Assembly: GCA_964632315.1 (NCBI GenBank)
Contig: CAZWEM010000020.1
Coordinates: forward strand, 1-64,000
Length of the DNA: 64,000 nt
DNA from: an uncultured archaeon
GTDB lineage: Archaea; Asgardarchaeota; Lokiarchaeia; Sigyniarchaeales; SOKP01
Reading direction: 5' to 3'
Shown: positions 26,341 to 52,389 of the stretch, one piece after another
How positions within the stretch are numbered: the stretch's first letter is position 1
Layout: the number at the start of each line of letters is the position of its first letter
Translations under genes and position numbers: made by a program
Notes under the pieces: generated by a model
The model's database searches: none
Seen by the model: the letters and a program-made list of their open reading frames with translations, nothing else
Told to the model about the DNA's origin: nothing

Positions 26341-27156
26341 ATGAATTTAGCAGAAATAAATCAACTTCTTAATGAGAAAATCTCTCCAAAAGAATATAAA
26401 ATAAAATCGGAAGTATATGGACTTCATTATAGTGAAGGAAATGGTCAAAAAATAATCAAGAAAGTTATATTAACGGTTGATTTGAATCTGGAAGTCATTC
26501 ATTATGCAATTCTTAATAAAATTAATCTTATAATATCTCATCATGGCTTGTTTAGAAGTTCCTTTAAAAATTTTAATCCCAGTTTAATCAAAAAATTGAA
26601 ATTACTTTCAAATTATCCCATTTCAATCTATGTTTTGAATACTCCATTTGTTTGTGCTGAAGGAGGGATTTCAGAAACTTTAATGAATATTCTCTACTTA
26701 GAGTTAGATGACATATTCAAGATTCAAATTAAATCTTATCAAAAAATACCAATTGGAAGAATTTGTCATCCTGAAACATTTGATCTGAAAAAAAGCTTAC
26801 TAACCCTAGAAAATATTCTGGAGAGAATTAAGATCAATCTAAAAATGAGTCAAATTCACTATGTAGGGACCTTAAAGAGAATAATAAAGAAAATCTGTCT
26901 TATTGGTGGAGAATTTATTAATGAAAGCGTATTAACAAAAGCTAAAAGTATAGGTTGCGACTGTGTTATATCATTTAAAATTGACCATCATCTTGCAGGA
27001 TTTGCTCGTGATATAGATTTAGTCCTTATCGCAGTCTCCCATTATCAAACAGAAAATATATCCTTAAGGAAATTATGTAATATTTTAAGTCTAGAATATC
27101 CAAAGTGTGAGTTTTCATTATATGATTCGAATGATCCACAACAAATCTATACTTAG
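26341..27156 (+). CDS. Nif3/YbgI-like dinuclear metal-centre protein (partly degenerate)
   Basis: TVD, IISHHG, IGRI, SHYQTE; the usual HTNLD motif reads NTPFV. Confidence 0.85.
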   Translation: MNLAEINQLLNEKISPKEYKIKSEVYGLHYSEGNGQKIIKKVILTVDLNLEVIHYAILNKINLIISHHGLFRSSFKNFNPSLIKKLKLLSNYPISIYVLNTPFVCAEGGISETLMNILYLELDDIFKIQIKSYQKIPIGRICHPETFDLKKSLLTLENILERIKINLKMSQIHYVGTLKRIIKKICLIGGEFINESVLTKAKSIGCDCVISFKIDHHLAGFARDIDLVLIAVSHYQTENISLRKLCNILSLEYPKCEFSLYDSNDPQQIYT

Positions 27157-29998: not shown

Positions 29999-30127
29999 CT
30001 TTTATGTTTATATATATAACATACCAAAATGACTATTAAAAAAATTTTTTAACTATATATTATTTAAATTATTCAATTTAGTGCAAAACATATTCATAAA
30101 AATAAATTAGCTTCGGGGAAGAAACCC

Positions 30128-30265
30128 GGGAGAGTAGACTCGTAGAGTTTATGAGTCTCTCTATTGGCTTAGCCTGGTATAGCGCACGGCTGATAACCGT
30201 GGATCCTTCTTCTCGATCCACGGGTTGTGACCGTGAGGTCGGGGGTTCGAAGCCCCCCTTTCCCA
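30128..30265 (+). tRNA. tRNA-Ile(GAT) with two introns (30135-30164 at 7/8; 30196-30229 at 37/38)
   Basis: Spliced product GGGAGAG TG GCTTAGCCTGGTATAGC G CACGG CTGATAA CCGTG AGGTC GGGGG TTCGAAG CCCCC CTTTCCC A folds as a typical archaeal tRNA-Ile; both inserts form hairpins. Confidence 0.88.
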
Positions 30266-30329
30266 TTTATTATTCATGAAAAATCCTCTTTAAAAAATTT
30301 CTTATTTAATATTTTGATAAAATAAATCA

Positions 30330-51939: not shown

Positions 51940-52389
51940 ATGGAAGAGACTCACTCAAAATTACAAAAATTTGATCAAATAGGGATACTAGTAAGAGATA
52001 TCGAAAAAACTGCAAAATATTTCAAAATTTTCTTACAATTTCAATCAAATATAAATATCATCGAGCAAATGTCAACAGTTTTCTATAAGGGAAAAGAAGT
52101 AACATTTAAAATGAAGAAAATAATGCAAAATTTTGGTGGAAAACAGTTTGAAGTAATAGAGGTAGTAGAATCATCCGGAGATCATCTCTATTTAGATTTC
52201 ATCAAAAACCAAAATGAGGGATTGCATCATTTAGGAATATATACTAAAACTGCTGAAGAACTTATTGATAATTTCAAAAAGAATTATGAACTTGAAGTAA
52301 TTCAAAGTGGTAAGGCTGGAAAAGTAAAATTTTATTTTTTAGATACAAGGAAATTAATCGGCTTTCACCTCGAACTCATTTCATTCTAA
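51940..52389 (+). CDS. VOC/glyoxalase family (methylmalonyl-CoA epimerase-like)
   Basis: QIGILVRDIE, FEVIE, GLHHLG, LELI. Confidence 0.85.
   Translation: MEETHSKLQKFDQIGILVRDIEKTAKYFKIFLQFQSNINIIEQMSTVFYKGKEVTFKMKKIMQNFGGKQFEVIEVVESSGDHLYLDFIKNQNEGLHHLGIYTKTAEELIDNFKKNYELEVIQSGKAGKVKFYFLDTRKLIGFHLELISF

Follow-up and report, generated by a model that had tools for sequence, protein, structure and literature searches.

How can an intron persist in a tRNA gene when its splice signal and the acceptor stem have to be built from the same bases? This question is raised by a tRNA-Ile(GAU) gene of an uncultured Loki-type Asgard archaeon. The gene lies on the forward strand of a 64,000-nucleotide stretch, positions 1 to 64,000 of contig 20 of the genome (CAZWEM010000020.1, assembly GCA_964632315.1). 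We call this whole stretch the window and give all coordinates as positions in it, on the forward strand unless stated otherwise. With its two inserts the gene spans 30128-30265, and the first insert, of 30 nt, directly follows tRNA base 7. [quoted passage not shown] We consider it likely that the locus is a working gene with a two-intron precursor, in which a decoy of seven bases in the leader holds the 3' acceptor strand and so frees bases 2-5 for the BHB. We base this reading on the anatomy of the gene, sequence conservation, covariation, the strict co-occurrence of decoy and intron, their joint changes of state, model energies and the presence of the enzyme genes.

Of all known tRNA genes, those of Asgard archaea are the most interrupted, and many of their introns escape standard tools (bioRxiv 10.64898/2026.10.13.758758). 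Many non-canonical intron positions are given in reviews, with position 3/4 in Thermoproteales as the extreme case (PMC4090602). Non-canonical BHB and HBh' introns of archaeal tRNAs are described by Marck and Grosjean 2003, as cited in the same review.

Results

We compared the window gene with its orthologues. Genus-wide searches identified ~20 distinct intronless loci, each of which equals the window gene minus both inserts, exactly. A pattern scan of species-representative genomes, taken together with the genus loci, identified the 7/8 insert at the same place in 26 distinct species, and the carriers of the orthologous locus are Promethearchaeota. The insert is 30 nt long in 26/26 species and has a shared plan: a single base is followed by a 9-bp stem closed by a 5-nt loop, four bases pairing with tRNA bases 2-5, and two final bases. 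In the window (30135-30164), the first base, i1 (30135), lies within the 5' bulge, and the stem pairs 30136-44 with 30150-58 and is closed by the loop at 30145-49. The central helix of the BHB joins 30129-32 (tRNA bases 2-5) to 30159-62 (intron bases 25-28) with 4/4 pairs, and 98% of its cells were paired across species. Two 3-nt bulges lie on opposite strands at 30133-35 and 30163-65; 30163-64 are intronic and 30165 is U8. Deletion of 30135-64, that is, after the second base of each bulge, restores the exon junction of the orthologues. In an alignment of 25 sequences the proposed structure was paired in 91.5% of cells, as compared to 37-65% with slid partners, and seven pairs of the hairpin had changes on both sides. 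RNAalifold, working from the alignment only, returned the pairing of the decoy with the 3' strand, the helix with bases 2-5, the 3-nt 5' bulge and the hairpin.

The exons agreed with the orthologues throughout. Exon 1 (30128-30134, tRNA bases 1-7), which we read as the true 5' acceptor strand, is invariant in the 26 intron-bearing species and is the same in the intronless orthologues. Exon 2 (30165-30195, bases 8-37) carries the D arm, the 5' anticodon stem and the anticodon GAT (30192-94); it was placed by the Rfam alignment and is 100% identical to the intronless orthologues. Exon 3 (30230-30265, bases 38-73) carries the T arm (30241-57), the 3' acceptor strand (30258-64) and the discriminator A (30265), and had 100% BLAST identity to the mature orthologue. 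CCA is absent from the encoded 3' end. From the decoy to the discriminator all parts are colinear within one 151-nt stretch (30115-30265), which is not the layout of a split or permuted tRNA gene. The inner helix measures 9-10 bp in the window, where BHB introns are expected to have a flanking helix of at least 2 bp. When the window sequence was folded by itself, the fold had a z of -4.5 relative to shuffled controls and the upstream 7-mer was paired with the 3' strand.

The original prediction had placed exon 1, the 30-nt insert, the central helix, the bulges, the intron stem, the upstream 7-mer and the 3' strand at coordinates that all proved correct. Its 7/8 position and its register on bases 2-5 were borne out by the orthologues, the covariation and RNAalifold, and alignment of the orthologous loci found intron, register and leader 7-mer conserved in 26 species. 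We conclude that 30135-30164 is, as predicted from this comparison, a real intron at position 7/8 of tRNA-Ile(GAU).

Two other arrangements were tried and rejected. The minimum-free-energy fold of the window sets the central helix between bases 4-7 and 30159-62, a register that fits 2 lineages, while the other 22 fit bases 2-5. An intron at 13/14, with a leader copy of bases 1-13 as the exon, was rejected because no BHB could be formed in a hand check and because the spacer is not kept as bases 8-13 in divergent lineages.

We then turned to the decoy, a 7-mer at 30115-30121 that can act as a surrogate 5' acceptor strand by forming 7 bp, one of them G-U, with the 3' acceptor strand (30258-30264). 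A 7-mer of this kind was present in 26/26 intron-bearing species, 6 nt (once 7 nt) before G1, and was absent within 60 nt in 20/20 intronless loci. The genome-wide frequency of 7-mers able to pair with the 3' strand is 2.3e-4 per base. Of the five decoy variants found, the commonest is joined to the 3' strand by Watson-Crick pairs throughout. Most changes at positions 4-6 exchange one purine for another and retain the pairing, and four G residues are kept. The mean pairwise identity was 1.00 for exon 1, 0.89 for the decoy, 0.81 for the central strand and 0.63-0.68 for the intron stems; it was 0.61 for the spacer between decoy and exon 1, 0.48 for the upstream flank and 0.39 for the 3' trailer. 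These results upheld the earlier proposal that the leader 7-mer can occupy the 3' acceptor strand: the 7-mer is conserved across species, and its pairing emerged from the covariation test, from RNAalifold and from the co-occurrence with the intron.

To see how the arrangement compares within the genome, we used a scan anchored on the T arm. The scan covered ~25 tRNA genes whose T arm is uninterrupted, and of these tRNA-Ile(GAU) alone had two full candidate 5' strands. Two further genes on the reverse strand, tRNA-Gly(GCC) (contig 21, ~26476-26578) and tRNA-Arg(GCG) (contig 15, ~52219-52323), were read as genes with D-arm introns. When their sequences were read, no upstream copy of the acceptor strand was seen at either gene, and the two stand as in-genome contrasts to the Ile gene.

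The energy models bear directly on the role of the decoy. In nearest-neighbour calculations with the leader removed, the stability of the BHB fold was 11.4 kcal/mol below that of the native-acceptor fold; with the leader present, the BHB fold was the more stable of the two by 0.7 kcal/mol (means over 27 scored rows, one of them a mis-registered duplicate). Within these models, the decoy is what removes a penalty of ~11 kcal/mol on the splice-competent fold.

The spacer (30122-30127) is a near copy of tRNA bases 8-13 in most relatives and is not such a copy in the window. Its likeness to bases 8-13 suggests that it arose through local duplication. Since bases 9-12 come close to being self-complementary, a spacer copy can also pair with them (G9-U12); 91% of the cells of this pairing were paired, with changes on one side only. 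In a constrained fold of the window spacer, two C residues alone pair, 30125-26 with G30166-67. The window and one other divergent lineage have spacers that are no longer copies, with the C residues opposite G9 and G10 kept. Tentatively, the spacer and bases 9-12 may form an outer helix. Further upstream, in most relatives (e.g. loci L060, L066 and L070), the region 33 to 21 nt ahead of the first G of the decoy contains a conserved purine-rich block and, after it, a TATA-like block, and in relatives this G is usually preceded by T. These promoter-like blocks suggest that transcription begins at the decoy or right beside it; the upstream region of the window itself is less clear.

To follow the history of intron and decoy, we used unrooted FastTree and IQ-TREE trees of three flanking proteins. 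The locus is syntenic in all species, with a 146-aa gene upstream and 197-aa and 523-aa genes downstream; loci from other families of the order had no readable tRNA-Ile context. On both trees the state of the intron changed at least six times, and the decoy changed together with the intron in every state change. Sister pairs differing in state were supported by 0.997 and 0.991 (FastTree) and by 99 and 98 (IQ-TREE), and monophyly of the intronless alleles was rejected (p-AU 6.5e-7). Since the introns are alike across deep branches, these data suggest that the intron arose once and that repeated loss or allele replacement came later. The upstream intergenic DNA of the closest pairs of intron-bearing and intronless loci does not align (L006 versus L008; L054 versus L038), which hints at allele replacement rather than simple deletion. 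We also attempted to reconstruct the loss event itself; deletion, cDNA-mediated loss and allele replacement were indistinguishable in this attempt, the intergenic DNA being too divergent to align.

The genome also encodes candidates for the processing enzymes. We identified two EndA paralogues (207 and 205 aa); the two EndA domains are present in both, and their genes are on contigs 28 and 8. One was nearest to chains of solved EndA structures, which we take to be the catalytic subunits of crenarchaeal EndA heterotetramers, and the other was nearest to entry 1a79, presumably the EndA of Methanocaldococcus. An RNase P RNA (139.7 bits) and an RtcB gene were also present. According to PMC5829648, only the two-subunit and epsilon types of EndA cut non-canonical introns.

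The second insert of the gene is a 34-nt intron read as position 37/38 (30196-30229), which was absent from all other orthologous loci examined. Its boundary is ambiguous within a 6-nt direct repeat (30196-201 and 30230-35), and within it a short palindromic hairpin is surrounded by a diverged anticodon-arm copy. A 9-bp inner helix and a 5-bp outer helix are intact and the 3-nt bulges are correctly placed. Judged from its distribution, intron 2 was probably gained recently.

We also asked how the gene appears to standard tools. The source genome has 4.45 Mb in 119 contigs with 33% G+C, and is 99.5% complete with 8.6% contamination. ARAGORN called no tRNA in the window at the tRNA-Ile(GAU) gene. 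The Rfam tRNA model (RF00005), applied to the unspliced window, matched 30165-30257 alone (model positions 8-63) with 27.9 bits, below the cut-off of 29 bits. On the other hand, the intronless orthologue, which equals the predicted spliced product, scored 64.3 bits with the same model, as a cloverleaf with anticodon GAU. The original prediction had named an intact tRNA-Ile(GAT) elsewhere in the genome, together with a lack of spliced reads, as the mark of a pseudogene. A BLAST search of the 99.5%-complete genome with the mature orthologue matched the window locus only, and no second tRNA-Ile(GAU) locus was found; a loose scan for anticodon arms of extra tRNA-Ile genes was unspecific, and the single-locus result comes from BLAST. 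Genome-wide, 20 tRNAs reached the Rfam cut-off and ARAGORN made ~30 calls, some of them dubious. Neither tool detected the tRNAs for His, Phe, Asp, Glu, Tyr, Thr, Met and other isoacceptors, which are probably hidden by non-canonical introns. The low count fits the heavy interruption of tRNA genes in Asgard archaea (PMC11291895; bioRxiv 10.64898/2026.10.13.758758). Two side observations concern the assembly and the locus. Stretches of contigs 90 and 112 are conspicuously G+C-rich relative to the 33% G+C genome, and these contigs are probably part of the 8.6% contamination of the bin. A 62-aa open reading frame lies antisense over the tRNA gene (30078-30266, reverse strand) and is almost certainly spurious.

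Discussion

We propose the following course of events for the tRNA-Ile(GAU) precursor. The decoy, at or near the start of the transcript, would pair with the 3' acceptor strand, and in doing so would pay for melting the real stem and block its competition. Bases 2-5 would thereby be free to build the BHB, and bases 9-12 may pair with the spacer as a short additional outer helix. Next, a two-subunit EndA would cleave behind the second base of both bulges, and the exons would be ligated by RtcB. Once the real 5' strand had reclaimed the 3' strand, the 13-nt leader, decoy included, would be cut off by RNase P; splicing ahead of RNase P cleavage had also been proposed in the original prediction. 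In this scheme we infer the cleavage, the transcription start, the order of events and the displacement of the decoy.

Other explanations have to be weighed against the decoy reading. The original prediction had offered the alternative that the upstream 7-mer is the true exon 1, followed by a 43-nt intron (30122-30164) to which the proximal 7-mer would belong. The upstream 7-mer can indeed form a full acceptor stem and is a perfect Watson-Crick complement of the 3' strand in most species, the TATA-like block is at the right distance for a start there, and in two species the two 7-mers are identical and would give the same product. The alternative is nevertheless disfavoured, and we regard it as very improbable. 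In all 26 species the proximal 7-mer is the same, and it matches the 5' strand of the intronless orthologues, whereas the upstream 7-mer occurs in five variants and leaves a U-U mismatch in three lineages. The BHB geometry puts the 5' cut right after the bulge that follows proximal bases 2-5; the invariant intron base C25 pairs with the proximal G5 and not with the A found in most upstream copies; and no inner helix follows the upstream 7-mer. It is more improbable still that the gene is a decaying pseudogene in this genome, as might be supposed from a 34-nt insert with a weak splice motif. Intron 2 is unique to the window genome and has 2/4 central-helix pairs, and with 8.6% contamination and 119 contigs a second copy could be unassembled; yet all exon bases match the orthologues, the only tRNA-Ile(GAU) locus found in the 99.5%-complete genome is this one, and intron 2 keeps both flanking helices and the placement of its 3-nt bulges.

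We see a small chance that a local duplication of bases 1-13 arose with the intron and left the upstream 7-mer and the spacer behind as a relic without function. This would account for the commonest spacers, which are near copies of bases 8-13, and for the decoy mismatches in three lineages, and intron 2 of the same gene also resembles a local duplication. However, a relic would hardly be expected to keep a decoy identity of 0.89, far above that of the spacer (0.61), the flanks (0.39-0.48) and the intron stems, or to retain four G residues with variation almost entirely among purines. The decoy also persists where the spacer has lost its likeness to bases 8-13, including in the window, and no intronless allele has it, over at least six changes of state. 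Equally unlikely, in our estimate, is that the decoy does pair with the 3' strand but serves another role, either by blocking RNase P, CCA addition or aminoacylation of the unspliced precursor, or by keeping a tRNA-like shape for recognition of the mature domain. The pairing evidence would be the same, and a leader with a spacer copy could mimic the whole 5' part of the tRNA. Such a role leaves unexplained why the decoy is linked to an intron that consumes bases 2-5, for which the energy balance gives a direct reason, and the spacers of the window and of one divergent lineage are not copies of bases 8-13, yet their C residues pair with G9 and G10.

Several observations weigh against the decoy reading itself. 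An outer helix directly adjoining the central helix had 0 contiguous bp in 11/11 genus loci scored, and the motif is thus of the HBh' class and not a full hBHBh'; the HBh' class is counted as canonical, and canonical motifs arise at 1-3% of arbitrary exact boundaries (bioRxiv 10.64898/2026.10.13.758758). Two unpaired bases set the outer helix proposed for the spacer apart from the central helix, and changes in the spacer helix are confined to one side. In one lineage a one-base shift of the hairpin gives a 2-nt 5' bulge, and three lineages have one U-U mismatch in the decoy helix. The central helix of intron 2 is also weak in this genome. The decoy and the intron are 13 nt apart, so that recombination would move both without a functional link. 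After splicing, the models still favour pairing of the decoy in three out of four modelled leader variants, that of the window being the exception; release of the decoy would consequently have to rely on tertiary folding or on irreversible cleavage by RNase P.

The arrangement at the tRNA-Ile locus shares features with several known systems. With the non-canonical BHB and HBh' introns, such as those at 3/4 in Thermoproteales and in the D arm and elsewhere in Asgard tRNAs, it has in common a short intron, a 4-bp central helix, two 3-nt bulges, an intron hairpin, an exon that supplies half of the motif, and a host with RtcB and with two EndA paralogues, a type of EndA that cuts relaxed motifs (PMC5829648). 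It differs from these in that the intron is at 7/8, the acceptor strand provides the exon half of the motif, and a conserved replacement strand lies in the leader. As in the split and permuted tRNAs of Nanoarchaeum equitans, Caldivirga and Cyanidioschyzon (PMC4090602, PMC4033280, PMC3978253), sequences outside the mature tRNA pair to set the splice-competent structure. In those systems, however, leader and trailer pair with each other, form the BHB and are removed by EndA, whereas the tRNA-Ile leader pairs with the mature 3' strand of the same transcript, lies outside the motif and would be removed by RNase P. Canonical 37/38 introns also give a precursor fold unlike the mature tRNA, with exon bases near the splice sites paired to the intron, but they remodel the anticodon loop only and leave the acceptor stem intact (PMC4090602). 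In the tRNA-Ile case the acceptor stem would have to open, and a stand-in strand is supplied.

The original prediction had put 7/8 outside the commonly reported intron positions. This held in so far as 7/8 is absent from the list in PMC4090602; it cannot be called unreported, since a census of Asgard tRNAs mentions 'a few' acceptor-stem and junction insertions at positions it does not list (bioRxiv 10.64898/2026.10.13.758758). tRNAscan-SE 2.0 lengthens its candidates by 60 nt so that introns close to the ends are caught (PMC8450103). In our incomplete coverage of the literature, we found no published description of a leader strand standing in for an acceptor strand.

The locus shows how an intron can persist where splice signal and acceptor stem exclude each other, namely with a second copy of the strand in the leader. 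It also offers a testable rule for the folding of the precursor and the order of its processing. Intron and decoy changed together at least six times within one species group, which makes the locus a natural experiment on the retention and loss of tRNA introns. ARAGORN and Rfam both miss the tRNA-Ile(GAU) gene, and the decoy offers a new signature by which to search sequences for hidden introns close to the 5' end. We lean, by a modest degree, towards a broader view in which leader-encoded surrogate acceptor strands are a general and undescribed class of cis-acting helpers for archaeal tRNA splicing. They would occur wherever a BHB borrows the acceptor strand, would be gained and lost with the intron, and would impose the order of transcription start, splicing and RNase P cleavage. 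If this is true, gene finders could use the decoy to detect hidden 5'-proximal introns, and intron positions that were thought to be forbidden by tRNA structure would become accessible.
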